Positions 24,617 to 62,670 of a DNA stretch of 64,000 bases are shown piece by piece. Each line of letters starts with the position of its first letter. Position 1 is the stretch's first letter. The notes below the pieces were generated by a model. That model made no database searches. It saw only the letters and a list, made by a program, of their open reading frames with translations, and had not been told where the DNA came from. A program made the position numbers and the translations under genes. Source of the stretch: an uncultured virus (IMG/VR IMGVR_UViG_3300032227_001252) (lineage: Duplodnaviria; Heunggongvirae; Uroviricota; Caudoviricetes). Location of the stretch: IMG/VR virus record IMGVR_UViG_3300032227_001252. One strand, 5' to 3'.

Positions 24617-24662
24617 AAGAAGGCCCACTCCGAAGGCAACTTCGGGGTGGGTTCTTCGTTTT
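24617..24662 (+). terminator. Intrinsic terminator
   Basis: Stem CCCACTCCGAAG-GCAA-CTTCGGGGTGGG followed by TTCTTCGTTTT. Confidence 0.8.
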
Positions 24663-24718
24663 GGCCTTGCGCGGTACGAGGGAAGCGGGTAGTTTCTGCT
24701 GAAGGAGGATTTCAGCAG

Positions 24719-26236: not shown

Positions 26237-26245
26237 GAGGTCCCC

Positions 26246-26869: not shown

Positions 26870-26870
26870 T

Positions 26871-27287
26871 ATGCCCCTCAACCGCACCCCACTCACCGGC
26901 AATCAGATCGTCGCAATGGCGAACGTGTCGCTGCAGCGCAACTACACGCTGCAGGGCGCCGCCGTCGTCGGCCAGAACACGTTCGTCATTGTCAATGAAC
27001 TGAACGTCCTCGGCCTGCCCTCGCTCACGTACTGGGTGCGGCTCAACTCGGGCAACCCGAGCATCGTCTTCACGCCCCTGTTCTCGGTGCAGAACACCAC
27101 CGTAGGCGGCACGACGACTGTTCCAGACTGGCTGCCGTTCACGAACGGATCCGTGCTCGTGCCCGGCAACGTGTTCACCTTCATCGTCCGTTCCGCTGTA
27201 GCGAACGCTGCGGTGGAGTTCACGATCCCGGGCGCGATCCCCGCAGCAACCGTCAACGTTGACGTTGTCATCACGGCAGGTGGCTGA
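26871..27287 (+). CDS. Small beta-rich structural protein
   Basis: V/T/N-rich, few charged residues; coupled. Confidence 0.6.
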   Translation: MPLNRTPLTGNQIVAMANVSLQRNYTLQGAAVVGQNTFVIVNELNVLGLPSLTYWVRLNSGNPSIVFTPLFSVQNTTVGGTTTVPDWLPFTNGSVLVPGNVFTFIVRSAVANAAVEFTIPGAIPAATVNVDVVITAGG

Positions 27288-27814
27288 TGCCGCTCAATCC
27301 CGCGTCCTCAACTCTGGGGCTGGCGCCCATTCAGTTCGCCTACGTCGCTACTGACCTGGCTGTGCGCGCGTGGGTGTTCCCCACCAACCGAGCACAAACC
27401 ACGTTCCAGTGGCCGTCGTCAAACACGCGCCAGATCGTGATCTTGAACACGGGTAACGCTCCTCTTCTGTTCGGCCTTCAGGGGTACTCCGACAGCACGC
27501 AGTTGCCGGGTCAGGCTACCGTCGGACTTGCAGAGCCCTACGCCCTGCCCGCGATTGCGTACCCGACGGCTATCGGCGCCGGACCCGTGCCTGTTGAGGG
27601 CAACAACTGCACGCGCATCCCTGCAGGAGCCTCATTCAGCATCGACCTGCTGTCCTTCGAAGAGCGTGGCAACTTCGTGCCCATCAGCCCCCTCGCGTTC
27701 GGCGGGCCGACGCTGCTGAAGACGGCCTTCCCGACCTACTTGCTCTTCTTCAGCTCCGTGGGCGGGAACACGACTGCTGACCTCACCTACGTCAACAAGT
27801 TCGGGACGTTCTGA
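27287..27814 (+). CDS. Small beta-rich structural protein
   Basis: TGATG coupling; QIVILNTGNAPLLFG strand pattern. Confidence 0.6.
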   Translation: MPLNPASSTLGLAPIQFAYVATDLAVRAWVFPTNRAQTTFQWPSSNTRQIVILNTGNAPLLFGLQGYSDSTQLPGQATVGLAEPYALPAIAYPTAIGAGPVPVEGNNCTRIPAGASFSIDLLSFEERGNFVPISPLAFGGPTLLKTAFPTYLLFFSSVGGNTTADLTYVNKFGTF

Positions 27815-27876
27815 GTAGCACAGCGGCGCCTGCCAGAAGGCGGTTCGGGTGGTAGCCTGCTCCTGTCGGAGTACAG

Positions 27877-33003: not shown

Positions 33004-34644
33004 TCAGTTGCCGGAGGCCTTCAGGGCGCGCATACGGTCAGCAAAGCCACGTTCAACGAGTTGCGCACCGCGGAGGTCGTCCCCGTCCACGCTCTGGAAG
33101 GGGTAGTACTTCCGCACGCGCTCACCGCCTCCCACCGGCTCGAACCCCTGCACGACGACTCGGCCGTCGTTCATCGTACGGCGGACGACGCAGTGGTGAT
33201 CCTGGGAGGGCATGTAGAGGTGATCGCCCACCTCGACATGATCGGCGGGGTTTGCCAGGCGGCGATGCGGGCCGCGGCGCGCCGGAGCGGAGTAGGCTGC
33301 AGAGCTCCACGCCGCCGCCTCGGAAGCCTTCTTCGAGGCCGCCTGCGCCTGCAGAGTCTTGGACTCAGCCCGCGTGATGAAGCGAGGGTACTGACGGCGG
33401 ATCTCCTCGACGCTCGTGCGGGCGAGCTGAGCCATACGCTGCAGTTCTGCCTCCGTGACGACGGTGTAGTTCACGCCCATGATGTGGGGGTTGGAGAACA
33501 TTTTCAGCGGATCCTTTGGCGCAGTCTTCTTGCGCCGGCGAGGCTTCAGTTTGATGTCGAGAGGGTCATGCGGTGTCTTCAGAACGCTGGGCGTCTTCCC
33601 CCGCATGGAGCGGGCTTCAGCACCTGCCGTACGGAAGATGTTCATGAGCGAGAGCTCGTCCGCTAAACCAGAAGTAGCCAGACTTTCGTCCATCGAGGTC
33701 AGCCGCATAGCACGCAGACCCGCCTCTGCTCCGACAGGCCCCATCGAGACGTCCAGGGTGACGTCCTTCGTGTACGGGGTCATGGGCGACCCGTCTCGAT
33801 TCCTCGGCGACAGAGCATCGGAAATGCCCGCCTCCACGAGTGCGTCTTGACGCAGTTTCTCAAGGTGGGCCAGACGAGCCTCGAAGCTGGCATCCACGGG
33901 CTTGTTCGCAGCCGGCGTAGGGCGTCCCGAGACGCGCCAGGGGCGACCCTCTGCCTCATGGATCCTGCGTGCGCGCCCGATCAGGAAGTAGGGCAGCGCA
34001 ACAGCCGTCCCATCGCCGAAGAAGACGACGTCCTTGTCGGGCACGAACACGACACCCATCATCTCTGAATAGAGGGCTGAGTTCGCCACAGCGTCGGCGT
34101 TGTTGATGGTGCGCTTCGCCTCGTTGACGCCGATGGAGCTCGCGTCCTCCACCGTAACGACGCGGATCGCCTCGATGCGACCCGTAATGGAGGCGAACAG
34201 GCCTTCGTCCGCGATCCAGAGGGTCAGTTCGACGCGAGGCTTCCCATCAACGTCGAGGTCGATGCGGTCCCGCGGCACGGCGCCGCCGAAGAGCACGAAC
34301 TCGATGTCGGGAACCCGCATGACGCCGCGGGCCCAGGCTCGCTGCTCAGGCCGAACCCGACGCAGGAAAGTGCCCTGCGTGCGAGCGTCCTTGGGCGTGT
34401 CGTCGTGATCGAGAACGTCCGTCCATCGGGTCGAAGGGGCGCCCTTCCAGCCTGTGGGCGTAGGGCGCTTCTCTCGCGGCACCTTCTTGCCCGAGATCAG
34501 CGACCCTTCTCGGCCGCCCGTAACCATGACATGCGACTTCCGAAGGTGCTCTGGGTACTCGGTGCGCTTCGGCACGACCCTGCCCGTGGGCCCGACAGAG
34601 TGGCTGAAGTATCGCGGCGCGAGAGAGGTAGGAGCCTTAGCCAC
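33004..34644 (-). CDS. Hypothetical modular protein with NP-bounded C-terminal modules
   Basis: 546 aa; FSNP and RLANP; last module SH3-like (VEVGDHLY...VVRR...GRVVV). Confidence 0.7.
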   Translation of the reverse strand: MAKAPTSLAPRYFSHSVGPTGRVVPKRTEYPEHLRKSHVMVTGGREGSLISGKKVPREKRPTPTGWKGAPSTRWTDVLDHDDTPKDARTQGTFLRRVRPEQRAWARGVMRVPDIEFVLFGGAVPRDRIDLDVDGKPRVELTLWIADEGLFASITGRIEAIRVVTVEDASSIGVNEAKRTINNADAVANSALYSEMMGVVFVPDKDVVFFGDGTAVALPYFLIGRARRIHEAEGRPWRVSGRPTPAANKPVDASFEARLAHLEKLRQDALVEAGISDALSPRNRDGSPMTPYTKDVTLDVSMGPVGAEAGLRAMRLTSMDESLATSGLADELSLMNIFRTAGAEARSMRGKTPSVLKTPHDPLDIKLKPRRRKKTAPKDPLKMFSNPHIMGVNYTVVTEAELQRMAQLARTSVEEIRRQYPRFITRAESKTLQAQAASKKASEAAAWSSAAYSAPARRGPHRRLANPADHVEVGDHLYMPSQDHHCVVRRTMNDGRVVVQGFEPVGGGERVRKYYPFQSVDGDDLRGAQLVERGFADRMRALKASGN

Positions 34645-34957
34645 GCTTGCCCCTGCGCGTCTGATGCTGAGAGTATGCCTCTTCGAGGAGGCCGCCGACT
34701 CCGCCCACGTCGAGCGGGTCGCCGCGGAGCGACTGGTTGACCGCCATCAGTTTCAGGCAGCGATAGCAGGTCACCACCTCCCCCTGTACGCGGTGCAAGA
34801 TCGTGGGGCGCTTGCGGAGCTCCTTCTCATCATCGTTGGGCATGCAGAGGGTGCCAGGCAGCAGAGGATGCTTGACGTGCACCATCTCCCCCTTGCCCAC
34901 GCGGACGAGGTCGGCATCACCAAGACGGCGACCCAGAGGGTTGATGAGGATCCGCAT
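34637..34957 (-). CDS. Small putative Zn-binding protein
   Basis: H...C...CYRC; TAGGAT-6 nt-ATG leaderless start. Confidence 0.65.
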   Translation of the reverse strand: MRILINPLGRRLGDADLVRVGKGEMVHVKHPLLPGTLCMPNDDEKELRKRPTILHRVQGEVVTCYRCLKLMAVNQSLRGDPLDVGGVGGLLEEAYSQHQTRRGKRG

Positions 34958-40329: not shown

Positions 40330-41313
40330 ATGTCGCAGCCCGTCCTGAACCCGGTGAACATCGGAGCCGTCGGCGCTGCCGTTCTGCTCGGCGGGCTCGG
40401 GTACGCCTTCACGAACAAGCCCGGATACGCCGCGGCAGGCGCTGTGACCGGCCTCGGGCTCGTACTCGGGTACTTCAAGGTCATCGAGCCGGGCCGCATC
40501 TACATGTTCGCCAAGCTCCGCCCTGGAGCCCGCGGGCTCGCAGTGGCCAAGGCCCAAGAGCGGCTCCTGAAGCACGGGTACCCGCCCCTCGCGGGTGAGA
40601 CCCCTGGCGTGTTCGGCACCTTCACTCAAGACGCCGTGAAGAAGTTCCAGAACGCACGCGGGCTCCCGACGACCGGCGTCATTGACTCCGCCACATGGTC
40701 TGAACTCGCTGCCCGCCCCAAGCAGGGTCTTACCGAGTACGACACCAACGACATCCTCAAGACCATGCGCCGCCTCGGCTACAAGGTGTCGGAGGACGGC
40801 AAGTGGAACATCGTCGGCCTGCGGTCGCGCGCAGGCTCGACCAACTCCTTCGACGACGAGATGCACCTCCTTCGCAAGACCGCGAAGGGGTGGGAGCACT
40901 ACGCCTACCCGATGACGGCTGACCCCGGCACCTATTACCTGACTACACCCTACAACGGGCAGGCAACTTCGGCAGTTGTACCGGGTCAATATCCAGACGC
41001 TTACACGTTCGGGCTGCACCGCGGCCAGTACGAGGCTCTCGTTCAGATTGGTCACCTCAAGGTGTACCGAGACGGGAACAGGGACGAGCGCTTCGACTAC
41101 GATCCGCGGAGCATCGTCACTGGGGTGTACGGCATCAACATCCACAAGGCGAGCGCAGACAGCAAGAGCGTCGACAAGTGGTCTGCTGGCTGTCAGGTCT
41201 TCGCGCGAGAGCGCGACTTCACCGAGTTCCTCAACCTGCTGAAGCAATCGGGTCAGCAGAAGTTCACCTACACGCTCCTCGCTGAGAACCAGGTGCGAGG
41301 ACTGATCGCGTAG
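40330..41313 (+). CDS. Membrane-anchored peptidoglycan-binding protein with YkuD/L,D-transpeptidase-like catalytic domain (lytic enzyme candidate)
   Basis: Two N-terminal TMs; PG_binding_1 (AVKKFQNARGLPTTGVIDSATW); GINIHKA...WSAGCQV His/Cys motif. Confidence 0.75.
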   Translation: MSQPVLNPVNIGAVGAAVLLGGLGYAFTNKPGYAAAGAVTGLGLVLGYFKVIEPGRIYMFAKLRPGARGLAVAKAQERLLKHGYPPLAGETPGVFGTFTQDAVKKFQNARGLPTTGVIDSATWSELAARPKQGLTEYDTNDILKTMRRLGYKVSEDGKWNIVGLRSRAGSTNSFDDEMHLLRKTAKGWEHYAYPMTADPGTYYLTTPYNGQATSAVVPGQYPDAYTFGLHRGQYEALVQIGHLKVYRDGNRDERFDYDPRSIVTGVYGINIHKASADSKSVDKWSAGCQVFARERDFTEFLNLLKQSGQQKFTYTLLAENQVRGLIA

Positions 41314-47255: not shown

Positions 47256-47798
47256 ATGGCCAACTTCGTCGAAGTCCAGTCTTCCGTCAGCGTCCAGTTC
47301 TTCGCCGCTGATGCAGGCGTCGTTCAGCAGAACCTCGTCGCCAACCCTCTCACCGTCCTCGCCAACCGCTCCTACAACGTGGCTGACTTCGCCGTGTGCG
47401 TGCTTGTCGGCGGCGGCGCAGGCAACCCCGGCGTCGACCAGGCTCGCATCAACATCGACGAGTACACGACCGCTGGCGCACTCGTGACGGCTCTCGGTAC
47501 GGTGCCGGCAGACAACGCCAACGCCAACACCTGGATCCGCCCGGCGAGCGCCACCATCACCGTGGCTCCGGCGGCTGCAACTGCGGCCCTGATCGGCAGC
47601 GCGACTGTGGCTCGCGGCAACAACCTCCGCATCTCTGCTTCGTCCTCGGGCGCCAGCGTGGCGTCCAACGTCCGTGCTCTCGGCACACTCCGAGTCCTTC
47701 CGGGCAACCGCTACAGCGCGACCACCTTGACGACCGCTTACTACGCGAACAACACCGCGTCGGGCGCGCAGGGCAGCTCCGCGACTCAGTCCATCTAG
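47256..47798 (+). CDS. Beta-rich structural protein, paralog A
   Basis: SD CAGGAG; ends LPGNRYSA...AYYANN.ASGAQGSSA.QSI. Confidence 0.75.
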   Translation: MANFVEVQSSVSVQFFAADAGVVQQNLVANPLTVLANRSYNVADFAVCVLVGGGAGNPGVDQARINIDEYTTAGALVTALGTVPADNANANTWIRPASATITVAPAAATAALIGSATVARGNNLRISASSSGASVASNVRALGTLRVLPGNRYSATTLTTAYYANNTASGAQGSSATQSI

Positions 47799-47828
47799 TC
47801 TTTCACCCTCTTCTCACAGGAGCCTCTC

Positions 47829-48311
47829 ATGGCCAACACCATCTCCGTCCGTTCCTCCCAGGTCGTTCAGTTCAACCTCGACACCAACGGCGCTGGCGCC
47901 ACCGCGCCCAAGCTCACGCTGCTCTGCAACCGTGACTACAACGTGGTCGACTACCTCGTTCTCGTCACGGCGGCCGCGGGCGGCGCAGGCAACCTGACCG
48001 TGCAGTCCACGGACATCCAGGCGGTGCCCGTCACCACGACGATCGGTTTCGTGACCGGCGTCGCCGCGAACGCCTACCAGCGCCCCACTCAGAGCAACGT
48101 CGCTGCCAACACCGGTTACCTCCCGGCCTCGGCAGTCGTCGTTCGCGGCGGCACGCTCACTCTCGCGTCCACCGACGCCGGTGACTTCAGCCAGGGCTAC
48201 CTGACGATCCTCCCGGGCAACCGCTACAGCGCAGTGACGTCGGGCACGGCGTACTACGCCAACAACGTGACCTCGGGCGCTCAGGGCTCCAGCGCAGTCG
48301 CTTCGATCTGA
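47829..48311 (+). CDS. Beta-rich structural protein, paralog B
   Basis: Shares NRxYNVxD and the whole C-terminus with 47256-47798. Confidence 0.75.
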   Translation: MANTISVRSSQVVQFNLDTNGAGATAPKLTLLCNRDYNVVDYLVLVTAAAGGAGNLTVQSTDIQAVPVTTTIGFVTGVAANAYQRPTQSNVAANTGYLPASAVVVRGGTLTLASTDAGDFSQGYLTILPGNRYSAVTSGTAYYANNVTSGAQGSSAVASI

Positions 48312-48340
48312 TCTGATCGACGATCCGTCCCTACACGGAT

Positions 48341-48381
48341 ACACAGGGGCGTGGTTCCTTCGGGGGCCACGCCCTTCGTGT
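48341..48381 (+). terminator. Stem-loop with cUUCGg tetraloop (terminator or mRNA stabiliser)
   Basis: GGGGCGTGGTTCC-TTCG-GGGGCCACGCCCT; weak U-tract. Confidence 0.7.
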
Positions 48382-48391
48382 TGGGAGTCAC

Positions 48392-48787
48392 ATGAGCGCG
48401 CTCTGGGATCGGACTGTACGTTTCCTCCGCAGGATCAAGGCCTTCGTCTTTCCCGTCGCGGGCTGGAAGAAGCGCATCGCCAAGTACCGAGGCGGTCAGA
48501 CTGCGTGGGCCCTCCCTGGAGCCCCCGAGGGCGCGCCGGGTGTCGGGCCTTGGCCTCTCGAGTGGACTCCCTGCATCGTCACGTTCGAGCATGACGAGGA
48601 GGGCAAGCCAACCGGCGCCAAGCTCGAGTTCCTGAACTTCACCTCGGACGTGTCCGGCCGTATGGCTGAAGACGAAGAGGCGGTAGCCTGTGCCCGGTGC
48701 GGCATCCACATGCACGTTGCCGACACCGACATGGAGACGAACCTCGACGTTCCGCTGTGCCCTTGGTGTGTCCGCGTTGCCGAGTAG
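48392..48787 (+). CDS. Small Zn-ribbon protein
   Basis: CARC...CPWC; SD GGGAG. Confidence 0.65.
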   Translation: MSALWDRTVRFLRRIKAFVFPVAGWKKRIAKYRGGQTAWALPGAPEGAPGVGPWPLEWTPCIVTFEHDEEGKPTGAKLEFLNFTSDVSGRMAEDEEAVACARCGIHMHVADTDMETNLDVPLCPWCVRVAE

Positions 48788-48820
48788 ACATGATACCCTC
48801 TTCTCGACTGGAGTCCCTCC

Positions 48821-49180
48821 ATGGCCAATCGCTTCGCCATCCGCAACCCGCAGACGATCCGCCTCGTCGTTGACTCTGACGCGACCGGTGCAGGTGTCAG
48901 CTACACGGCTCTGGGCCCGTTCGAGATCATCGAGTCTTGGGTCATCAACACCGTGGCTGTGGCCAACAACACGACCATCAAAAATGGCGCGACCACGCTC
49001 GCGACGGTCGCCTCTGGCGCTGCTGTCGGCGACGTCGATTACGCCATCCCGCTCGGCGCCGCGGACATCACCAAGCTCTACTTCGGCCCCGGTGACGTCT
49101 TGAACGTCACTGCGAGCGCTGGGACGGCACGCTTCGAGGCGTTCTTCACCATCCTTCCTGGCGTCACTGCCGCGACCTGA
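48821..49180 (+). CDS. Small beta-rich structural protein
   Basis: FEIIESWV...FGPGDVLNV; SD GGAG. Confidence 0.65.
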   Translation: MANRFAIRNPQTIRLVVDSDATGAGVSYTALGPFEIIESWVINTVAVANNTTIKNGATTLATVASGAAVGDVDYAIPLGAADITKLYFGPGDVLNVTASAGTARFEAFFTILPGVTAAT

Positions 49181-49192
49181 TAGGAGCACGCC

Positions 49193-49555
49193 ATGGCGAA
49201 CACGCAGAACTACTACTACGCAGTCCAGACCCACTACTTCAAGCTGGACACGGACATCACCGCGGGCCTGCTGAGCCCCGTCTTCAACCGGAACTTCCGA
49301 GTTCTGGATGCAACGGTGTTCGTGACTGCACCTGTCGGCGGGGCCACGCTGACGATCAACCGCATCCGTGGCGGAGTGGCGACCACCGTTGCGGTTCTCG
49401 ACGTGTCGGGTGTCGGCCGCGCGCCCTTCGTCCTGGACATCAGCCAGACCAATGGACTCTTCGAGAGCGGCGACCAACTGCAGCTCCTCACGAGCGCGGG
49501 TGCAGGTGCGGTCGATGCGAACGTCATCGTCTACCTGCAGCAGTTCAGCGTTTGA
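49193..49555 (+). CDS. Small beta-rich structural protein
   Basis: RNFRVLDATV...FESGDQLQL; SD AGGAG. Confidence 0.65.
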   Translation: MANTQNYYYAVQTHYFKLDTDITAGLLSPVFNRNFRVLDATVFVTAPVGGATLTINRIRGGVATTVAVLDVSGVGRAPFVLDISQTNGLFESGDQLQLLTSAGAGAVDANVIVYLQQFSV

Positions 49556-50424: not shown

Positions 50425-50883
50425 ATGACTGAAGACCAGCTCGCATCGCTCTTCGAGCGCCGTCTGACCGAAGTCCGTCAGGCGTGCGGCCCCATGACGA
50501 TCTGTCTCATGGAGGCAGGGAACGACCTGTTCCCGATGCGGCGTTCGTACGCGTTCTTCTCCGTGAGCTGCAAGCCGTACCTTATCGCTCCGCCTGGAAC
50601 CTCCGTGATCGCGTTCGCGGAGAAGTACAAGAACGCTCCGCTGAGTCGCATCGAGGCTGTCTTGATGCACGAGTTCGGGCACGCGATGGACTTCCTCGCG
50701 CACCGCTACCCCACCTTGCCCTCCGATCGCGCATCCGACCCCGCGGTACACCGTCAAGGTACCGAGCGACGTGCAGATGCCCTCGCGGAGGGGCTCTGGG
50801 GCGTGAAGATCAAGTACGACGATGACACCGTGCAGTCTCTCTGCTGCGGTGTCCGCCCTCGCCCGAGTGCTCTGGGACTCTGA
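50425..50883 (+). CDS. Small zincin-like metallopeptidase
   Basis: LMHEFGH (HExxH) and downstream ERRAD. Confidence 0.65.
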   Translation: MTEDQLASLFERRLTEVRQACGPMTICLMEAGNDLFPMRRSYAFFSVSCKPYLIAPPGTSVIAFAEKYKNAPLSRIEAVLMHEFGHAMDFLAHRYPTLPSDRASDPAVHRQGTERRADALAEGLWGVKIKYDDDTVQSLCCGVRPRPSALGL

Positions 50884-51247: not shown

Positions 51248-52036
51248 GTGAGCCTGCAGGAGCATCTCGCCCAACAGCAGCTCCTTCCCTCAACGAAGGC
51301 GCAGTACAAGTCCATCCTCTCACGCACAGAGGGGAAGGACCCCATCTCCTGGCTGAAGAGCAGGATTCACGCCCGCACGCCCATCGGCACGGTTCTGCCG
51401 TACCGCGCTGCGGTCAAGCACTACCTCATGTCCGAGCAGGGCTACACAGAGGAGGAGCTCAAGGAGCTGCTCCCCAAGGCCAAGGGGCGCCCGACCGCGT
51501 ACCGCCACGCTCTGACTCCAGAGGCTTTGGCGACGTACCATGCTGCGGTTGAGGACGTACCCGACCCCTCCATGACGATCCTCACCTTGCTGCCCAAGAC
51601 GGGACTGCGCATCAGCGAGATCTGCGGTCTGCAGGTCGGCGATGTGCAGAACGTCTCGGGTGTCAGGGCGTTCGTGTTCCGCGGCAAGAGGGACAAGCAG
51701 CGGGTGGTGCCGCTGACGAAGTCAGCGGAGACGACGCTGGATGCGTACCTCGCCTCTCACCAGCCCACGAAGTGGCTCTTCACAGGGCAGATGGGTGGAC
51801 CTCTGACACCGCACGCCGTGCGAAAGCACACGCGCGCGATTGCCGCTCTGAACCCTGACCTCAACGAACTCAGTCCTCACGTCCTCCGCCACACCTACGC
51901 GACCCTGTTGGTGGCTCGTGGTGTCGACTTGAAGACGATCCAGAACCTCCTCGGGCACGAGAGCATCGAGACGACCTCTCGGTATTTGCACCCGACCGTC
52001 TCCGACCTCGCGGTTGCCGCCGCGAAACTGGAGTAG
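51248..52036 (+). CDS. Tyrosine recombinase (XerC/D-like)
   Basis: TGLRISE, GKRDKQR, HVLRH, LLGHE, TSRYLH: full R-K-H-R-H-Y set. Confidence 0.93.
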   Translation: MSLQEHLAQQQLLPSTKAQYKSILSRTEGKDPISWLKSRIHARTPIGTVLPYRAAVKHYLMSEQGYTEEELKELLPKAKGRPTAYRHALTPEALATYHAAVEDVPDPSMTILTLLPKTGLRISEICGLQVGDVQNVSGVRAFVFRGKRDKQRVVPLTKSAETTLDAYLASHQPTKWLFTGQMGGPLTPHAVRKHTRAIAALNPDLNELSPHVLRHTYATLLVARGVDLKTIQNLLGHESIETTSRYLHPTVSDLAVAAAKLE

Positions 52037-52431: not shown

Positions 52432-52717
52432 CGTGCTGGAGTGTGACCGCAGACCAACCGGCTTCGGCGAGGCGATGTACGTCCGCATACACCGTAAAGA
52501 CATGGCCGTCATGGGCTTCCGCGAGCTCTGGGATCTCTTCGACAGGCTGTACCCGAGTCTGTGGGCCGTGCAGGTGTTCCCGCCTCGGGAGAGCCTCCTG
52601 GATCAGGCAAACAAGTACCACCTGTTCGTCTACGCCCACAAGCCTGAAGGGCTGAGCCTCATGGACGGCCCGCCTCGTGGCTCGACGCTCATCGCCAACC
52701 AGCGCCAGGTCGAGTAA
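52424..52717 (+). CDS. Small phage-type hypothetical protein
   Basis: AVQVFPPRESLLDQANKYHLF. Confidence 0.7.
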   Translation: MYDVLECDRRPTGFGEAMYVRIHRKDMAVMGFRELWDLFDRLYPSLWAVQVFPPRESLLDQANKYHLFVYAHKPEGLSLMDGPPRGSTLIANQRQVE

Positions 52718-53298
52718 TGCGCGTTCGACTCCTGCCCACCGTGAGGCGGAACCCTGCCGTCGCGTTCGTGACGGATCCCATGGCGTTCCTTCGGACAACC
52801 TCAGCAGCATGGGCAGAGGGGGACGGGACCCTGCGCTTGATCCCTGAAGGGAGAGAGCACAGCACGTTCGTTGACTGGCAGAAGGTCGAGCAGATGGGCG
52901 GCCCTACGGAAGACGAAGCGTGGGCTTTCGGCGATGAGCACAGTCTCAGCGCGGACGCGGCAGTGCTCGATAGGCTCCACTGGGTCGCCATAGGCAGCAT
53001 CCTGCAGGGGCGAACCTCCCAGCCCGCGGACCGCCGCGCGATGGAAGCTCTCGCCCTCTTCCTGGCCAGTGCTGTGCTCCACTTCGCACGGCAGCGCGCC
53101 AGCCTGTTGGAGCAGGACTTCATCCTCTACGACACCAACCACCCCTTCGACCGAGGGGCCCACATCAACATCGGCGACCTGATCTCGCGCCACGCCGCGC
53201 AGGGTGTCGAGGAAGCCATGTACGACCAGTTGTCGCGGCTGCCCACTCCGACCCACCCTGTGAACATCTTCGGGACGCCCACGAAGCGCCGCAAGTAG
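52717..53298 (+). CDS. Hypothetical protein with N-terminal RRNP leader
   Basis: MRVRLLPTVRRNP; TAATG coupling. Confidence 0.7.
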   Translation: MRVRLLPTVRRNPAVAFVTDPMAFLRTTSAAWAEGDGTLRLIPEGREHSTFVDWQKVEQMGGPTEDEAWAFGDEHSLSADAAVLDRLHWVAIGSILQGRTSQPADRRAMEALALFLASAVLHFARQRASLLEQDFILYDTNHPFDRGAHINIGDLISRHAAQGVEEAMYDQLSRLPTPTHPVNIFGTPTKRRK

Positions 53299-53548: not shown

Positions 53549-53971
53549 TCAGTCCCCGTACCCGAACGGGTTCTGCAGGAGGTGCGCCGTTCCAGGTGCC
53601 GTCGGCTTGCTGCCCGGAATCCGCGCAGGACGGGCCTTGCGGCCGCTGCGGAGGATGGCCATGTACTTGGGGTAGGACAGGCCGAACTGCGCGCGGACTT
53701 CGGCGTGCGAGACGCCGCTGTCCAGGAGACGCTTCAGCTTGAGCCGCATGTGCTCCATCTCCGCGGGGGAGAGGCGGTCAGGCATTTCGGCGGGGTTCAT
53801 CCGATACGGGTTGGCCAGGGGCTCGCCGTGAGCGTCAACGGGGTACTCCCCCCGTGCGCCGAGCTCCTTCTTCATGCGGTACTCGAACTCTGCGAACGCG
53901 CCGCCACCACGAGGGGCCGGGTTGCCGCGAGTGGCGAGCATCTCGTAGAACGCTTCCTGATGCTTTCCCAT
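53549..53971 (-). CDS. NP-modular protein with HTH-like module
   Basis: Four NP motifs; LDSGVSHAEVRAQFGLSYP is shared with the neighbouring gene. Confidence 0.75.
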   Translation of the reverse strand: MGKHQEAFYEMLATRGNPAPRGGGAFAEFEYRMKKELGARGEYPVDAHGEPLANPYRMNPAEMPDRLSPAEMEHMRLKLKRLLDSGVSHAEVRAQFGLSYPKYMAILRSGRKARPARIPGSKPTAPGTAHLLQNPFGYGD

Positions 53972-53980
53972 GAGAGCCTC

Positions 53981-55474
53981 CTACTTGGTCCAGTGCGAGC
54001 GGAGCACCATCATGTAGATGGGGTACGAGAGGCCCATCTCGGCGCGGACGTCGTTGTGCGACATGCCGCTGTCGAGCTTGGCCAGGATCTGCGAGCGCAT
54101 CTGGAGCTTCGTGGCACCGCTGGCGCGCTTGACCGAGGCGTCGTTCGCCCCTGCACCCTTCGGGTTGGCCAGGTAGTCAGAGATGCGCGCGTGCTGGGGG
54201 AGCTGTCCAGACCGCATGGCGCCGTAGTAGCCACGCTGCACGTCACGCTCGGCGGCACGGGCGTTCATCGCCTGAGCCTTCGAGACGAAGCGGGCACCGA
54301 TGGCGGCTTCCGAGCGCGCGATCGCCTTCGCCTGAGACTTCTTGAGGGCCGCGGCAGCACGAGCAGACTTGCTCTTCGCCCCCGCAAACGTGCGGGGGTT
54401 GTTGTACATCTTGTCTTCGTACATCGCCGCTTCGTACTCGGCCTGGCGGGTGATGTCAGCCATGCGGCGCTGCGACGATGCGATGTGGCGGCCGGAGCGC
54501 TTCTTGGCTGCGGTTGCGCGCTGCGAGCCGCTCATCTGGCTGCGGTGACGGGAGGGGTTGTCGAGAGCGGAGTCCGAGTAGTCAGGCGTGAACACGATGC
54601 CCGGCTCGAGCTCTTCGTAGAGGCCGAACGGGTTGCGGCGCATCGGGCCCATCATCTGGGACATAGCGGAGGGCATCGTCGGAGTACGAACGTACTGGTG
54701 GTGGCTCGACGCTGCGGAGTGCTCCGCCTGCGCCTGGCTTGCCGAGACGCTGCTGCCCGAGTCCTGATCGTACATCTCGCCGTAGTACCGCCCGAACGGG
54801 TTCGAGCGTGCACCGAGAGCGCGCTCAACCTCGCCAGGGGCCAGCATGCGAGAGCCCATCTTCATGATCTGGTTCGGAGTCATGTAGAGCGTCTTGCCAC
54901 GCTTCGACTGCACTTCGATGCGCCCCTCGCCCGGCTCAGTGATGGGCTTGAAGGGGTTGTGGAGGAGGTGAGCAGTCCCATGGGCGGCAGGCATTTTTGG
55001 CATCTCCGATGTTTTGAGCTTGGCCCGCGCCGCTTCGAGCCCGCGAGCGAACTCGGGATCCACGTTATGGATTCCCCCCTTGCGGTACAAGAAAAGATCC
55101 GCAGCCGCCAGGGCCGCCCGTTCGCGCTTGGAGATGTGAGCCCCCGGCAGGTTGAGAGCACGGTAAATGAGTCCCCGAAGCGCAACCACGAACTTCTGGT
55201 CAGGGGGAACCTTGCCGCTGGTCACATCGCCGATCTTCTTGAGGGCCTGCGCGACGTTGTCCGGCTTCAGGAAGGAAGGAGGGAGCTCGCCGCTGAGCGG
55301 GTTGTTGTGGGTGACGAGGTTCGACATGTTGCTCTGGAGGGTGTTGGAAGGGGGAAGAGGAACTTCCGAACCCGAGTTGACACCACCAGAGGGCGTGTAC
55401 TTGGGCCAGAGGACCCGGGCAGCATAGCCACGAGCCGAGAGGATGGGCGAGATGCCGGGGTTGCGGCGGGCCAT
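53981..55474 (-). CDS. NP-delimited polyprotein (8 NP motifs)
   Basis: Starts MARRNP; SD GGAG. Confidence 0.8.
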   Translation of the reverse strand: MARRNPGISPILSARGYAARVLWPKYTPSGGVNSGSEVPLPPSNTLQSNMSNLVTHNNPLSGELPPSFLKPDNVAQALKKIGDVTSGKVPPDQKFVVALRGLIYRALNLPGAHISKRERAALAAADLFLYRKGGIHNVDPEFARGLEAARAKLKTSEMPKMPAAHGTAHLLHNPFKPITEPGEGRIEVQSKRGKTLYMTPNQIMKMGSRMLAPGEVERALGARSNPFGRYYGEMYDQDSGSSVSASQAQAEHSAASSHHQYVRTPTMPSAMSQMMGPMRRNPFGLYEELEPGIVFTPDYSDSALDNPSRHRSQMSGSQRATAAKKRSGRHIASSQRRMADITRQAEYEAAMYEDKMYNNPRTFAGAKSKSARAAAALKKSQAKAIARSEAAIGARFVSKAQAMNARAAERDVQRGYYGAMRSGQLPQHARISDYLANPKGAGANDASVKRASGATKLQMRSQILAKLDSGMSHNDVRAEMGLSYPIYMMVLRSHWTK

Positions 55475-55504
55475 GGAGGTCTCCGTAGTCGTAGGTAGGC
55501 TACG

Positions 55505-55819
55505 TCAGGAAGTAGAGGTTGGGGAGGTGGGGGTAGCACTCTGGAGAGCAGCCTCGACCTTGCGGTACGAAGCGGCGTGCCAATAGGTGCACGCCCCGCC
55601 GAGCGCGGCGATGAACAAACCGTAGATCGGCTTATCCTTCATGAGCAGCAGGCCCGCCACAGCGACCGCGGGACCTCCGACTGTATAGGCGAACTTCCTC
55701 TGATGCTGCAGCACGCGCTCAGACTCGACGTCGAGGCAGAGTGCAGTGATGTTCCCTGCGGCATCACGCTGCGCGGTAACCTGTGGCGACGCGGGGATCA
55801 TGTAGAGGATGGAGTTCAT
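55505..55819 (-). CDS. Small membrane protein
   Basis: Two hydrophobic segments; TGATG coupling. Confidence 0.7.
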   Translation of the reverse strand: MNSILYMIPASPQVTAQRDAAGNITALCLDVESERVLQHQRKFAYTVGGPAVAVAGLLLMKDKPIYGLFIAALGGACTYWHAASYRKVEAALQSATPTSPTSTS

Positions 55820-56742
55820 CAGTAATCCCGGCTCGGGTACTTGGAGTCCATGAGGCGGGCTTCCTGACGATAGCGGTCTTCGCGGATCTTCTCTTCACGA
55901 GCCTCGGCGAGGTCGTGAGAGACCTGCTCGTAGTGCTCGTCGATGGCGGCCTGCGAAGCCGCGGCCCCACGCGCACCGCGCTTCGCGGCACGGGCACTGC
56001 GGAAGCGATCCTTCGGGTTCTGACGCGGAGCGCCCCGAACCGAGGGGTACTGCTGGTAGATGGGGGCCTGAGCGCGGGTGTCTGCGAAGAGACCCAGCAC
56101 ATGAGGACGAAGACTGTCTGCCGTGGCGCTGTCCCCCGTCGCGGACGCGATGATGTACTCTGCCATCATCCGGCGGTTGTAGTAGTCGCCCATGGTGTTG
56201 TCCCACAGGGGGTCGGACTCGTACACCATGCTCATCGCAACGCCGAGGTGCTTCGGCTTCGGGTACTGCTTCATGACCGCCCCGAACTGCGCGATCATGT
56301 TGTTCAAGGTCTGGATCGCCTTGGCCATGGAGGCGTCGTGGCGGGCGTGCTGCCCGGCGATGTACCCGGAGTGAGCAGCCTGAGCGGCGTCGAACTGCGC
56401 GAGTTCGCGCTCAGGGCGCATCGCAGAACGAGCCTGAACTTGGCGGCTGGAGGGCTTGCGGTCGATGTCCGTGCGGCGGGGGTTGAAGCGCATGTACTTC
56501 TCCTGTGGCGTGACAGAGAACGGGGTCCCACGCACGCGGTCGATGTTTCCGGTCAGCCTGGCGAACTGTCTGGAGGCCTCGTGGACGTCTGACCACGGGC
56601 CAAGAAGCCGCCGACCAGAAGCAGCCTCGACGATGTAATAGACGCTGTCCCCGCCCTCGCGGACCTCTGCAACAGTGTACGGAGTGGCAGAGTCAGGGCC
56701 CATCCCCGTTGTAGAGAGGAACGCGGACGGGTTGCGGCGCAT
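55819..56742 (-). CDS. NP-modular protein
   Basis: MRRNP, MRFNP, PRQNP. Confidence 0.75.
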   Translation of the reverse strand: MRRNPSAFLSTTGMGPDSATPYTVAEVREGGDSVYYIVEAASGRRLLGPWSDVHEASRQFARLTGNIDRVRGTPFSVTPQEKYMRFNPRRTDIDRKPSSRQVQARSAMRPERELAQFDAAQAAHSGYIAGQHARHDASMAKAIQTLNNMIAQFGAVMKQYPKPKHLGVAMSMVYESDPLWDNTMGDYYNRRMMAEYIIASATGDSATADSLRPHVLGLFADTRAQAPIYQQYPSVRGAPRQNPKDRFRSARAAKRGARGAAASQAAIDEHYEQVSHDLAEAREEKIREDRYRQEARLMDSKYPSRDY

Positions 56743-56744
56743 GA

Positions 56745-57314
56745 TCAGAAGCCACTCCGCTGGAACCGACCAGCAGAGGGCTGGAAGCCTGCGAGCGGCG
56801 CCTTGCCCTTCGGTGCGAGACCTTCCGCGGCGAAGAGATCCGCCTCGTACTTCCTGCGTGCAGCCAGGCCCTTGAGGACCTTGCCGCCTGCCGTCTTCGG
56901 CCCGTCAGCGATGGCCTTCTTGGCGCCTGCGTAATCGCCCGAGTTGAGCTTGGAGAGGATGGCCTTGAAGGACTTGGCGCCGAAGCCGGTGTTGAACCCG
57001 AACGAGAACACCGCGTCGAACATGCTCTGCGTCACAGGGACAGTGATCATGCTCGTGAGCTTGGACTCACGGGGGTTGAACGTCTCGTCGATGACCTTCT
57101 TGAGCGCGGCACCCTCGAGCTTGGCCTTGCCTGCAAGGTAGGAGGCGAAGTTCTTCTTCTCGTGGGACTCGATCTTCTTCCCGAGAGCGATCGTGGGGTT
57201 GCCCTTGAGCGCTGCCCATGACGAGACATCCTTTCCCGTCGCGTCGTCATAGACGTGCGGGCGGATGGCCTCCATCTTCTTCATGTGCTCAAACAGAGTG
57301 GCGCTGATCTTCAT
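56745..57314 (-). CDS. Phage lysozyme (GH24)
   Basis: E-x8-D...PTIALG; QSMFDAVFSFGFNTG; GGKVLKGLAARRKYEADLF. Confidence 0.9.
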   Translation of the reverse strand: MKISATLFEHMKKMEAIRPHVYDDATGKDVSSWAALKGNPTIALGKKIESHEKKNFASYLAGKAKLEGAALKKVIDETFNPRESKLTSMITVPVTQSMFDAVFSFGFNTGFGAKSFKAILSKLNSGDYAGAKKAIADGPKTAGGKVLKGLAARRKYEADLFAAEGLAPKGKAPLAGFQPSAGRFQRSGF

Positions 57315-57553
57315 CAGTTCCTCCGTGCCAGCGCGAGGCCGATGCCCAAGAAGCCGAAAGCGACCGCAGCGATACCCGCACCGATCGCCCAGGTGGGGAT
57401 GGCAACCATCTGAACGCCGCCCGGTGCGAGCTGCGCCACTTCGAGCGGCGCGGAGCCGGGCTCGTTGGTCAGGTCGTCACCTGGCTGCGGATCGGGAGCC
57501 GGAGTGTTCTTCGCGGCTGCGGGCGGGACGGGGCGTCCCTTGCTCTTGGCCAT
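57314..57553 (-). CDS. Small tail-anchored membrane protein
   Basis: C-terminal WAIGAGIAAVAFGFLGIGLALARR; coupled to the lysozyme gene. Confidence 0.7.
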   Translation of the reverse strand: MAKSKGRPVPPAAAKNTPAPDPQPGDDLTNEPGSAPLEVAQLAPGGVQMVAIPTWAIGAGIAAVAFGFLGIGLALARRN

Positions 57554-57562
57554 GGGATGCTC

Positions 57563-57994
57563 CTACCGACGCCGCGGGTTGGCGCGCCAGTGCATGATCC
57601 CAGCACGGTTGAGATCCCAGTTCGCCCATTCCTGGCCGTCGATGTCCGCGATCACCTCCTCGAGGGAGATGCCGGGTACAGGGGACGGGTTGTGGCGGTA
57701 GGGGTTCGTGCGGCGGAGCATCTTCCCGAGGATCTCCTGACCGCGGCTCGGGGTGGAAGCGTACTTGCCGGTCGATGCGCCCGTCTGCGCGTCCACGACG
57801 TGCCAGAAGCCGTCGCTCAGCTGCTTGAGGATGTAGCGGCGGCCTTCCGTCTCGTGGCGCTGCGTGTGCTTCGCAGTTGCTGCCCACGTGCTCTTCTCTT
57901 CATCGCCCCAGGGGACAGCCTGTCCACCAGTGGTGACCATGAAGGGGTTGCGCCGGGCCTTCCGCGGACGCTTGGGGGGCTTGTAGCCGGCCAT
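57563..57994 (-). CDS. NP-modular protein
   Basis: SD AGGAG; ARRNP, RTNP, RHNP, RANP. Confidence 0.75.
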   Translation of the reverse strand: MAGYKPPKRPRKARRNPFMVTTGGQAVPWGDEEKSTWAATAKHTQRHETEGRRYILKQLSDGFWHVVDAQTGASTGKYASTPSRGQEILGKMLRRTNPYRHNPSPVPGISLEEVIADIDGQEWANWDLNRAGIMHWRANPRRR

Positions 57995-58016: not shown

Positions 58017-59516
58017 CTACCTCCTCTTGCGGCGGACCGGGCCTCCCAGGTAGCACTCCCGCACGAGGGTCGCGTTGAAGTCACCGTTCGCACTTCGCTT
58101 CGCGACGCCCTCTACGGCCGTCCACCCTCCCGCGGGGAGAGCGAAGGGCACCGTGACGTTGATGTAGGTCTGCGGAGCGACACCGACCGTGAGGAAGGTG
58201 AGCTTCGTCTTGTCCTTCTTCGAGTACCAGACACGCGAAGCGGCGATCGGGCCACAGAACTTCCAGCGGTCGGAGCCGTCAACCAGTTCAGAGAACTCGG
58301 ATCCCGGCGGCATCTGCGGGGATGACCAGTAGCCGAACTTCGACCACTCCTGTCGGAGTGTCAGACTGAACAACTCCTCCTGGCGGGGGCGCGTGTCTAC
58401 GAAGGGCGCCGCCTCGTGAGGGTGGACCCACGGGCGGTACATGGAGTGCGCGTGCGCCAGCGTGGACTTCCAGAAGCGGTGCGGGTCTCGAGCCTTGTGG
58501 TAGGCGAGCGCCCACACGACCGCGCCGTAGGCCACGCCGTGGGACTTGCAGAAGGCGTAGGCTCTGAACGCCTCCACCCGCTTGCGGAGGGCTGCGTCTT
58601 TGAGGATGGGCTCTCCGTCGGCTCCTCTGATCTCCTCTCCTCGCCCCTTCACGATGGCACGACGGACAGCATCGGCGATCTCTGGAGAACAGCGGCACGC
58701 CTTCGCGATGGCGGAGATGACGTCGTCCTCGTAGACCAGCGGCTCCTCGCTCTTCTTGTCCTCGGCAGCGGCCGGGCGGATGAGGGACGTGGCCAGCATG
58801 GCATCCTCCATCCGCTGCACGCCGATGCTCACAGCCGCCTTGCGGAACGCGGGGCTCTCTCCACCGATGATGCCGATGGAGTTGCCACTCGAGAGCACCT
58901 GCGCGGCCAGGGGATCCTCCTTGGGGTAGTCGAAGAGCGGACGGTCGCTGATGCCGTCGAGCTGCGCGAGCGCACGGGAGGACAGCAGGTCGACCTTGTA
59001 GAAGCCTGCCTTCTCCACGTCGTCCTTGTTCATGTTCAACTGCCCGGGCTTGAGCAGCATGTGGGACGGGATGGCGTCGTCCATGATGATGAGCCCGCCG
59101 CAGTGCAGGGACCAGTGGTGGAACTCTCCGTCGCGGTGGACCTTGTTGCTCACGCGGGCGACGCGGTTCCCGTACTTGCGGAAGACCCTCTCGAACACTT
59201 CATCTCTGCGGTTGTACGGGACGTCGATGTCGATGTCTGGGGCATCGGGTCGAAGGTCGTGCATGAACCGCGTGACCGGGATCTCCCACGCAACAGGGTC
59301 GATCTCCGTGATGCCGAGGTAGTAGCAGAGGAGGCTCGACCCTGCAGAGCCGCGGATGTTGTGCGGCACGTCGGGCATGAGGTCGAGGATCTCTCTGACC
59401 TGCACGAACATGCGCTCCAGGCCGTGCTTCTCGGCGATGCGCAGTTCTTCTTGAAGCCGTTGGGCGTACACGTCCGAGGTCGGAAGTGGCCGACGGAAGT
59501 AGGGCAGCAGGTTCAT
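58017..59516 (-). CDS. dnaE: Compact family-C DNA polymerase (DnaE-like, 499 aa, no PHP domain)
   Basis: RGSAGSSLLCYYLGITEIDP, PDIDID, KVDLL, YAFCKSHGVAY; OB-like C-terminus; ATG 59516 after GGAG. Confidence 0.88.
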   Translation of the reverse strand: MNLLPYFRRPLPTSDVYAQRLQEELRIAEKHGLERMFVQVREILDLMPDVPHNIRGSAGSSLLCYYLGITEIDPVAWEIPVTRFMHDLRPDAPDIDIDVPYNRRDEVFERVFRKYGNRVARVSNKVHRDGEFHHWSLHCGGLIIMDDAIPSHMLLKPGQLNMNKDDVEKAGFYKVDLLSSRALAQLDGISDRPLFDYPKEDPLAAQVLSSGNSIGIIGGESPAFRKAAVSIGVQRMEDAMLATSLIRPAAAEDKKSEEPLVYEDDVISAIAKACRCSPEIADAVRRAIVKGRGEEIRGADGEPILKDAALRKRVEAFRAYAFCKSHGVAYGAVVWALAYHKARDPHRFWKSTLAHAHSMYRPWVHPHEAAPFVDTRPRQEELFSLTLRQEWSKFGYWSSPQMPPGSEFSELVDGSDRWKFCGPIAASRVWYSKKDKTKLTFLTVGVAPQTYINVTVPFALPAGGWTAVEGVAKRSANGDFNATLVRECYLGGPVRRKRR

Positions 59517-62190: not shown

Positions 62191-62670
62191 ATGCGGCGAA
62201 ACCCCGACTACACCTGCTCCGTCTGCGGCGCGACCTTCCCCAGTAGGTCGCAGCTCAAGAGCCACGCCTACAAGGAACACGAGGTGTACGTCACCGCGGG
62301 GAAAGCCCCGACCAGTGTGCTCTACAGCGGTCCGCGGTGGAAGTGCTCCACGTGCGGGGAGGCGTTCTACACGAAGGCTGAACTGTCGAAGCACATGGAT
62401 CAGTACGCTAGGCGGTCGGCTGCGAACGCGACGCATGAGTACTTGGCAGAGGTTGCCCGGCGGCAGGCCGCGTACGAGCGCGCGCAGGAAGAACTCATGC
62501 GGAGGCAGCGCGCCGCTGCCGTTCAGGAGCGCAGTGTGTCTACCCAGCGCGCGCCCCAGAGAACGGGCGACAAGGGCGGCGCCAATGACATCGTGGTGTT
62601 GGCGACGTTGGCTATGCTCGCCGGCGGGCTCATGCTCGCGAATGATCGCAAGAAGGCAAAGAAGAAGTAG
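62191..62670 (+). CDS. C2H2 zinc-finger protein with RRNP leader and C-terminal hydrophobic segment
   Basis: CSVCGATFPSRSQLKSHAYKEH; CSTCGEAFYTKAELSKH. Confidence 0.8.
   Translation: MRRNPDYTCSVCGATFPSRSQLKSHAYKEHEVYVTAGKAPTSVLYSGPRWKCSTCGEAFYTKAELSKHMDQYARRSAANATHEYLAEVARRQAAYERAQEELMRRQRAAAVQERSVSTQRAPQRTGDKGGANDIVVLATLAMLAGGLMLANDRKKAKKK

Follow-up and report, generated by a model that had tools for sequence, protein, structure and literature searches.

The question raised by the locus described here is why a virus should write the dipeptide Asn-Pro many times over into a few of its proteins, and whether anything reads it. The locus is a minus-strand gene cluster at positions 53549-57994 of a 64,000-nucleotide stretch, hereafter the window, from an uncultured freshwater virus of the Caudoviricetes (IMG/VR record IMGVR_UViG_3300032227_001252). 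On the minus strand a DNA polymerase gene (58017-59516) is followed by seven genes, termed G, F, E, D, C, B and A in that order. An earlier note on this DNA had described the range as a cluster of peptide arrays delimited by Asn-Pro, with modules shuffled between genes. Comparison of the sequences with their relatives makes it very probable that A, B, D and G encode mosaic proteins, built from small autonomous modules of 13-155 residues that are exchanged at conserved Asn-Pro seams.

Asn-Pro excess in genes A, B, D and G

Gene starts were refined by ribosome-binding sites; all genes and modules of the cluster are given on the minus strand. Gene B (53981-55474) encodes 497 residues with eight Asn-Pro pairs, where 1.44 were expected. 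Gene A (53549-53971, 140 residues) has four pairs, gene D (55819-56742, 307 residues) three and gene G (57563-57994, 143 residues) four, against 0.40, 0.47 and 0.41 expected, respectively. These counts, as well as the eight tetrapeptides listed for B, agree exactly with the earlier note, and the end coordinate 57994 coincides with the ATG start of G, which is preceded by AGGAG. The description of the whole range as Asn-Pro arrays holds for A, B, D and G and fails for C, E and F, which lie within the range, contain 0, 2 and 0 pairs and are not arrays. Phe, said to follow the pair often, was found at three of the eight sites of B.

Summed over the four proteins, 19 Asn-Pro pairs were counted, compared to a mean of 2.77 and a maximum of 11 in 20,000 shuffles (binomial P 2.5e-12). 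Pro follows 19 of their 39 Asn residues, whereas in the other 63 proteins of the window, with a Pro frequency of 0.06, it follows 61 of 540. A milder enrichment was observed in the rest of the window (61 pairs, 31.7 expected), and over the whole window Asn-Pro was the most over-represented dipeptide of its proteins (80 pairs versus 34.5 expected, 2.31-fold). A 41.6-kb stretch of the nearest deposited phage, a distant 484-kb phage, showed no excess (21 pairs, 23.1 expected). The excess is a feature of the proteins and not of a DNA word, because AACCC was concentrated in codon register: 73 copies stand in the codon frame, whereas the two remaining sense frames have 7 and 4 and each antisense frame 8-16. 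All four proteins are basic, with net charges of +31 for B, +10 for G, +9 for D and +6 for A, and the fraction of Lys plus Arg was 0.163 in the family as a whole versus 0.128 in the window.

Module shuffling among relatives

The earlier note proposed that units bounded by Asn-Pro are duplicated and recombined as building blocks, and named three pairs of recurring segments within the cluster. Two of these proved real in a BLASTP search of a seven-protein database. A helix-turn-helix-like segment is shared by A (residues 41-109) and B (423-493) at 44% identity (E 3e-11), and the GTAHLL[QH]NPF segment by A (101-136) and B (140-175) with E 1.3e-4; the two blocks stand in reversed order in A and B, so that module order does differ between genes. 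The third pair, YYIVEAASG and WHVVDAQTG, was not supported (BLASTP E 3.5; hhalign of the G-type module family against the first module of D, probability 0.4%).

Relatives of B are few. A search of 5.8 billion proteins gave 32 clusters, and one of 1.84 billion gave 33 representatives with E of 1e-3 or lower; all are unnamed metagenome proteins. After removal of P0054, a leucine-rich-repeat protein matched by chance, and P0060, the 63 remaining family proteins were cut at each Asn-Pro, which yielded 425 segments with a median of 51 residues in 29 families. Many of the families are narrow in length (34-37, 33-37, 63-64 or 24 residues, for example); single-linkage clustering wrongly joined the N-terminal module with the helix-turn-helix module. 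Most units are small folded or disordered modules of 13-155 residues and not peptides, as the earlier note had called them; that they would condense the genome or be injected, as the note proposed, is conjectural.

Architectures varied widely among the 63 proteins, and alignments showed whole blocks present or absent with breaks at Asn-Pro. P0002, for example, has ..THNNP|FKPITE.. at a place where B is 115 residues longer and closes this additional stretch with ..LLHNP|FKPITE... Insertions or deletions (indels) of at least 8 residues with well-aligned flanks numbered 38 distinct cases in 32 proteins, and in 16 of them both ends were exactly at Asn-Pro (null mean 0.2, maximum 3 of 2,000). Of 30 distinct indels of at least 19 residues, 19 had both ends within three residues of Asn-Pro (null mean 0.63, maximum 4). 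These events are partly non-independent, since the same indel recurs in related proteins. Indels outside seams included a 92-residue deletion in P0007 and short indels in a low-complexity basic stretch. The ends of BLAST high-scoring segment pairs, a blunter measure, fell within three residues of Asn-Pro for 38% of 564 starts and 25% of 1,309 ends, compared to 10.7% in the null; most ends lay farther off.

Modules were also found to move between genes and to multiply. The last module of G terminates eight proteins (P0025-P0032) whose front halves carry B-type modules. The N-terminal module of B is internal in P0039 and P0040, stands in about three tandem copies in P0041, P0046 and P0050, and in two in P0053. 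A 546-residue protein encoded outside the cluster (33004-34644, minus strand) has an N-terminal domain that is fused to B-type modules in P0023, P0024, P0037 and P0043; the match to the large N-terminal domain of these four proteins covers residues 35-119 (tblastn/BLASTP E 4e-17). Comparison by hhalign of the family of the 81-residue module of G with the FWVTPQG.. family gave a probability of only 40%. Together, the 29 families, the indels bounded by Asn-Pro and the tandem copies bear out the view of duplicated, lost and transferred building blocks: most large indels end near Asn-Pro, and the related genomes do not carry fixed single-domain proteins. Module order, copy number and host gene are free in the sequences compared.

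At least one family module is, to judge from its sequence match, an autonomous small protein elsewhere, because the C-terminal module of P0041 (residues 299-371) corresponds to an entire 80-residue hypothetical gene of Gordonia phage LittleFella (46% identity, E 3e-10). This module is matched by 39 actinophage records.

Module turnover is also recent, as indicated by a strain that is 96-98% identical over 54531-57691 and was found in assembled contigs of three runs (X2, X3, X4) of one study. On one contig of this strain position 54908 is joined to 55302 through 48 other letters, with a net loss of 115 codons, which corresponds exactly to M2, a module of B. About 8 bases are common to the repeats on either side of M2, which is ordinary microhomology. 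Two further contig joints, 54332-56026 and 57814-57912, had short sides of 21-26 letters and were not relied on.

The seam motif and its positions

At the level of the protein the seam reads [R/L/K]-x-N-P-[F/R/K]. In 267 distinct contexts Arg was found two residues before Asn in 45%, Leu in 16% and Lys in 10%, and Ser directly before it in 27%. After Pro, Phe stood in 23% (8.5 times background), Arg in 16% and Lys in 13%. The 29 unrelated module families all close in Asn-Pro, and Arg or Leu two before Asn is common to many of them. The family members are phylogenetically related, and their motif frequencies are therefore non-independent counts.

The motif is not confined to positions between modules. 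The first Asn-Pro falls at residues 5-6 in 24 of the 63 family proteins (M-A-R-R-N-P or similar), and in 14 of the 63 exactly three residues follow the last one (NPFGG, NPFGY or NPRRR, for example). In the window, 12 of 67 proteins have Asn-Pro among their first 17 residues (4.3 expected), and RRNP occurs 10 times where 0.23 was expected. The [R/L/K]-x-N-P leader recurs on B, D and G and on proteins encoded at 62191, 15378 and 52717. The first of these (62191-62670, plus strand) is a C2H2 zinc-finger protein (PF00096, E 7.6e-11), unrelated to the arrays, which starts with MRRNP and continues directly with the finger; a eukaryote-type C2H2 finger is unusual in a prokaryotic virus. The other two, with RRNP leaders, are a pentapeptide-repeat protein (15378-15881) and a protein at 52717-53298. 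A homologue search into the origin of the leader on the pentapeptide-repeat protein gave 3,060 repeat proteins of a generic kind, with no close ortholog among them, and was uninformative.

Since the seam forms short N-terminal leaders and three-residue C-terminal trailers, a passive linker is not sufficient to explain it, and the seam is more than that. It is independent of module identity and is placed where nothing needs linking, and for these reasons the motif is probably read by something. Taken together, the sequences point to a lineage-specific system in which mosaic proteins exchange modules at [R/L/K]-x-N-P and the same motif doubles as leader and trailer.

Predicted structures and family matches

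An AlphaFold2 model of B, based on an alignment of 29 rows, showed a string of separate units (mean predicted local distance difference test score, pLDDT, 67; predicted template modelling score 0.30). All eight Asn-Pro sites lie between confident units, and N306-P307 stands directly before a helix starting at 307. Residues 66-156 form a helical bundle (pLDDT of M2 about 80-88), residues 180-222 a strand-strand-helix-helix unit (93-95) and residues 443-491 a helix-turn-helix (93-97), with long helices at 307-353 and 369-422. Confidence was low for residues 1-65 and 224-301 and for the short linkers. The bundle matched generic three-helix bundles only (Z up to 7.4). Fold comparison of module M8 by VIA-align gave KorB (8qa8_A, Z 5.4, root-mean-square deviation 2.2 over 42 residues) and P1 ParB (1zx4_A, Z 5.3, 2.2 over 44 residues); these Z-scores are weak, and the model suggests only weakly that M8 is a ParB/KorB-like helix-turn-helix.

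No significant match was found for A, B, C, D, F or G in Pfam, PHROG or NCBIfam, and module M3 had no match in these libraries or by sequence in the Protein Data Bank (PDB). A type III effector (EspF) match for D was disregarded, as it scored 18.3 bits against an NCBIfam cut-off of 250. Thirteen relatives scanned against Pfam and PHROGs gave no match save one PHROG of no assigned function. Profiles A1 and A3 had no sequence match in the PDB at E values up to 10. Foldseek, given the model of B, found no match with E of 1e-3 or lower, and the ESM Atlas no usable match, its own model having a pLDDT of 0.50. The cluster had no blastn match among 50,697 phage records, nor did B, P0026 or P0055 by tblastn. 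Scans of IMG/VR with B and P0006 found no relatives, and a scan of JGI metagenomes found five short contigs only, of 1.3-7.6 kb. The alignments are shallow.

Genes and modules of the cluster

B begins with the six-residue leader MARRNP (residues 1-6), followed by eight modules, and its seam Asn residues are 5, 58, 173, 225, 281, 306, 359 and 437. M2 (54953-55297, residues 60-174) is the helical bundle and has Asn-Pro on both sides. M3 (54797-54952, residues 175-226), the strand-strand-helix-helix unit, is the most widespread module; its pattern, ..KRGKT..M[TS]..Q[IV]..[ML]G..ML..GE..R.L..NP, has 12 invariant columns in 21 sequences. The M3 segment family comprises 57 segments in 44 of the 63 family proteins, a single-linkage family that also includes a second, longer module type. 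M8 (53984-54160, residues 439-497), the helix-turn-helix, is a paralogue of the module of A at 53567-53791.

A consists of a short leader-like module (MGKHQEAFYEML..NP), an acidic/basic helical module, a five-residue spacer, the helix-turn-helix-like module and the trailer NPFGYGD. A has a Shine-Dalgarno sequence to itself, AGGAGG, and starts in frame 9 nucleotides past the stop of B: positions 53972-53983 hold the TAG of B, then three in-frame codons with AGGAGG, then the ATG of A. In P0004-P0006, P0034 and P0182 the B homologue carries the modules of A at its C-terminus, and they are likewise fused on the metagenome contigs L002 and L003; because relatives have this fusion, the separate A and B look like the product of a recent gene fission at a seam. 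One free-standing homologue of A, P0059, was found. Contig L002 keeps the gene order of the cluster, with the modules of A belonging to B.

D has the leader MRRNP, an 83-residue module, a 155-residue core and a 64-residue basic tail. The D homologue on L002 is without the first module, and homology begins exactly at ..NP|RRTDI. G has a 17-residue basic leader ending in RRNP, an 81-residue module, YRHNP, a 37-residue module (SPVPGIS..W.ANP) and the trailer RRR; in its L002 homologue a 37-residue module stands in place of YRHNP.

The three remaining genes are of other kinds. C (55505-55819, 104 residues) has two hydrophobic stretches, is holin-like by inspection and is kept at the same place in relatives (L001, L002, L004). 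E (56745-57314, 189 residues) encodes a phage lysozyme of GH24 type, which matched the full profile of PF00959 (Phage_lysozyme; 65.1 bits, cut-off 22.3, E 1e-17, profile positions 1-125 of 125) as well as PHROG endolysin families. F (57314-57553, 79 residues) has one C-terminal hydrophobic helix. Its C-terminus reads ..ARRN-stop, the upstream half of the seam motif, and that of its L002 homologue ..SRRN-stop.

What the seam may be for

The Asn-Pro pair looks, from the sequences, like a code for either "cut here" or "dock here". In the reading that is tentatively favoured, the seams are proteolytic processing signals of modular polyproteins, with or without a role in targeting. The seam would be recognised for proteolytic processing, possibly coupled to targeting, and A, B, D and G would be polyproteins that release many small, mostly basic and partly DNA-binding proteins. 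The closest model would be the short P3-x-P1 propeptide and maturation motifs of the prohead proteases of T4 and giant phages, whose substrates include internal and ejection proteins; Asn would take the place of Glu at P1. Either an enzyme or an Asn-driven self-cleavage could break the Asn-Pro bond. Processing is favoured because the seams are independent of the module, may be terminal and fall between predicted units, because module order is free, because one module matches a whole LittleFella gene, because F ends as it does and because there are precedents. A cut between Asn and Pro would produce an end like the native one of F, ..RRN, and this was counted for processing.

Several points weigh against this reading. 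The seams are known from sequence only, and cleavage is a prediction. The relatedness of the family members makes the motif frequencies non-independent counts. No prohead or other processing protease was found in the window, which covers 64 kb of the contig of some 178 kb, and the HEFGH protein described below is a candidate at the level of a motif only, with a model pLDDT of 43. Most endopeptidases cut poorly before Pro. A specific folded context (NPTH) is required by the proteins known to cleave themselves at Asn-Pro, and NPTH was found at none of the 363 Asn-Pro sites of the family. No free-standing single-module homologue of the B modules was found; the shortest match was of 137 residues, and the eight matches in a search of shorter proteins were of at least 198. 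The cluster furthermore lies among a lysozyme, membrane proteins and a DNA polymerase, with no recognisable head genes adjoining.

A wider form of processing, in which Asn-Pro is a seam code used throughout the virus and shuffled polyproteins of dozens of otherwise unrelated mini-proteins are cut between Asn and Pro, is predicted with less assurance and is a doubtful extension. The cutter would be a dedicated endopeptidase of new specificity or a protease-free Asn cyclisation. Where the products go, for instance to the capsid and from there into the host along with the DNA, would be set by the short RRNP leaders and the basic tails.

The rival that survives best, a real possibility but an unlikely one, is that the proteins stay uncleaved as beads on a string, the Asn-Pro being an Asx-Pro turn or a helix N-cap that insulates mini-domains. 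Shuffling would occur by illegitimate recombination, with only in-frame joins at seams surviving, and the whole proteins would act as multivalent, basic, partly DNA-binding scaffolds. In the model of B the Asn-Pro sites are all in linkers, and N306-P307 just before its helix is placed as an N-cap would be. The tandem arrays of one module in P0041, P0046 and P0050 suit multivalent binding, and the lack of an identified protease and of free single B modules is what is expected if nothing is cut. Arrays of C2H2 zinc fingers, with the conserved linker TGEKP between shuffled DNA-binding modules, are a known parallel. A passive linker does not, however, explain seams five residues from the N-terminus or three from the C-terminus, an RRNP leader on unrelated single-domain proteins, or the preference for Arg or Leu two residues upstream across unrelated modules.

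Placement at the termini is better accommodated if the seam is a docking motif, [R/K]-x-N-P-[F/Y/W], repeated for avidity, which tethers its bearers to one partner such as the capsid interior, the portal, a compartment or a host hub; the DNA encoding the motif would only incidentally supply microhomology for shuffling. We regard this as improbable. The flank preferences, Arg at -2 and an aromatic residue at +1, resemble those of a ligand, terminal placement is common, the motif is found on unrelated proteins of the genome, and a second genome-wide tag, a C-terminal basic tail on 8 of 67 proteins including the DNA polymerase, would be in keeping with it. The invariant part, however, is two residues, with Phe after Asn-Pro at 23% only and Arg, Lys, Ala, Ser and Gly elsewhere. 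There is no need for a docking motif at every module boundary, and no partner is known.

It is very improbable that the signal lies in the DNA, with AACCC as a recombinase target or a hotspot of cassette exchange and Asn-Pro as its mere translation. The Asn-Pro codons do form direct repeats at both ends of indels, and a tyrosine recombinase gene (51248-52036) lies 1.5 kb from the cluster. Against these stand the frame specificity of AACCC given above, the variation of the Pro codon (CCG, CCC or CCT) and the few Asn codons that are AAT, the flanking preferences at the level of amino acids, and the 5-8 shared bases, which fit ordinary microhomology. Translational separation of the 2A type (ribosome skipping at NPG|P) can hardly be credited: NPGP, with which 2A peptides end, was found twice among the 363 family seams, at a single seam in two proteins whose homologues have NPGA, but at none of the 19 cluster seams; the D(V/I)ExNPGP consensus is absent, the cluster genes carry Shine-Dalgarno sites, and to our knowledge 2A activity is known only on eukaryotic ribosomes.

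Other features of the window

The window has a G+C content of 64% throughout and looks like part of a large and very novel phage-like genome. B is recorded on a contig of 178,212 bp and its relatives on contigs of 152-180 kb. Few of the 59 window proteins scanned matched phage families: a tyrosine integrase, an HNH endonuclease, an SNF2 helicase, three peptidoglycan-hydrolase-like proteins, a DndB-like protein and a short DNA polymerase III alpha-like protein. These 59 proteins, from 64 kb out of the contig of about 178 kb, yielded no capsid, portal or protease family. The polymerase (58017-59516, minus strand) is a minimal protein of 499 residues with NTPase and finger domains only, and its best match in a deposited phage was 33% identical (484-kb uncultured phage LR756508.1).

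The HEFGH protein (50425-50883, plus strand, 152 residues) is encoded 2.7 kb from the cluster, next to the integrase, and is 78% identical to a protein on L003 (3870-4328, minus strand). Its element order of helix, three strands, HExxH helix and helix with Glu is the zincin core order given in PMC5512222. Pfam returned weak rows for Peptidase_M91 (E 0.11) and SprT-like (E 0.16), and the model was poor (pLDDT 43, alignment of two sequences). The protein is a candidate minimal zinc metallopeptidase. From its place beside the integrase, it could equally be a repressor-cleaving protease.

At least four Lys or Arg among the last eight residues were found in 8 of 67 window proteins (null mean 1.2, maximum 6), encoded at 19612-20049, 24647-25486, 27877-32220, 34637-34957, 52717-53298, 57563-57994, 58017-59516 and 62191-62670. 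The set includes the DNA polymerase III alpha-like protein, the HNH endonuclease and the zinc-finger protein, and the C-terminal basic tail may be a second genome-wide tag.

In the plus-strand region 25556-32220 five consecutive genes start with Met-Pro, one of them via an alternative start, and the dipeptide is over-represented 1.59-fold in the window; after removal of Met these proteins would begin with Pro, like the products of a cut between Asn and Pro. Two giant open reading frames on the plus strand, 7853-14923 (2,356 residues) and 27877-32220 (1,447 residues), had no family match. They contain 8 and 6 Asn-Pro pairs (4.07 and 2.66 expected), clustered near the termini. Just upstream of the first, at 6903-7856, is a weakly transglutaminase-like protein (papain-like fold, E 8.7e-4). 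In 47256-49555 (plus strand) four small genes, at 47256, 47829, 48821 and 49193, begin with M-A-N and two end in GSSA..SI; they are conserved in L003 and look like a paralogous family. Peptidoglycan-hydrolase-like genes were found at 18220-19608 (plus strand), 40330-41313 (plus strand) and 56745-57314 (minus strand, gene E), two of them with PG_binding_1, and because there are three such separate genes, the lysozyme of the cluster need not be the lysis enzyme.

Significance

If the seams are processed, a code of two residues would allow small effector or DNA-binding proteins to be gained, lost or rearranged with no need to evolve further starts, stops or promoters, which would explain the whole-module differences between near-identical strains. 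The protease specificity, or the self-cleaving chemistry, would be new to phage maturation. Cargo proteins of uncultured viruses could be recognised by a simple rule of sequence, and the modules would form a natural set of minimal autonomous domains. Should the wider seam code hold, it would amount to a polyprotein strategy like that of RNA viruses in a prokaryotic double-stranded DNA virus, with plug-and-play evolution of the cargo. If the seams are left uncut, Asn-Pro is still a universal linker of unrelated modules, not found described in literature searches, the reason for which is still to be explained.

Comparison with known systems

Full-text literature searches found no description of phage proteins delimited by Asn-Pro. 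Four known systems share parts of the pattern. In polymorphic toxins a demarcating motif, for example VENN of CdiA, marks the point at which variable cassettes are swapped. The likeness lies in a short conserved peptide at the swap point, which may serve both recombination and release. Unlike the single motif of these toxins, which precedes a C-terminal toxin with a cognate immunity gene, the seams described here are many per protein, with no toxin domain and no immunity gene.

Autocleavage at Asn-Pro is known from reovirus mu1, one of the asparagine peptide lyases. In FlhB, YscU and HrcU the Asn-Pro bond is cut autocatalytically (PMC3052322); the same bond would be cut in the cluster proteins, and could be cut by the same route, cyclisation of the Asn side chain without a protease. 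Theirs is one conserved folded domain with NPTH, whereas the seams stand in diverse, mostly unstructured contexts, without NPTH and without a Pfam match.

Polyvalent proteins (Iyer et al. 2017, PMC5512222) are multi-domain proteins of mobile elements with 2-15 domains in variable order, thought to be delivered with the DNA and partly released by built-in or neighbouring zincin peptidases. B, with its eight modules and the differing architectures of its family, resembles them in number and variable order of domains. They are defined by known enzymatic and anti-restriction domains (MPTase, ArdC-N, ParB-like nuclease, methylase-helicase, ART and others), whereas the modules here match no library family and are much smaller. 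No junction motif is named in that paper, in which "linker", "boundar", "Asn" and "proline" do not occur.

The closest comparison is with the prohead proteases. The T4 protease gp21 recognises L/I-x-E, with capsid-targeting leaders on its substrates, and gp175 of phiKZ recognises S/A/G-x-E. In SPN3US, as described in PMC10052503, the site of the protease gp245 is A-x-E, behind which it cleaves; it takes off N-terminal propeptides of 20-254 residues, and those of ejection proteins are cut several times. The cluster proteins have no sequence relationship to these substrates and are known from their genes alone. In place of Glu at P1, 19 of 19 cluster seams have Asn followed by Pro, and the seams part heterologous modules along the whole protein, not a propeptide from a mature part. 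In both, the motif is very short, with P3 and P1 set and P2 free, which here would be [R/L/K]-x-N; it is found on several unrelated proteins of one virus and in short N-terminal leaders; and several copies of it stand in each of a set of fast-evolving, basic paralogues, here proposed to be cargo.

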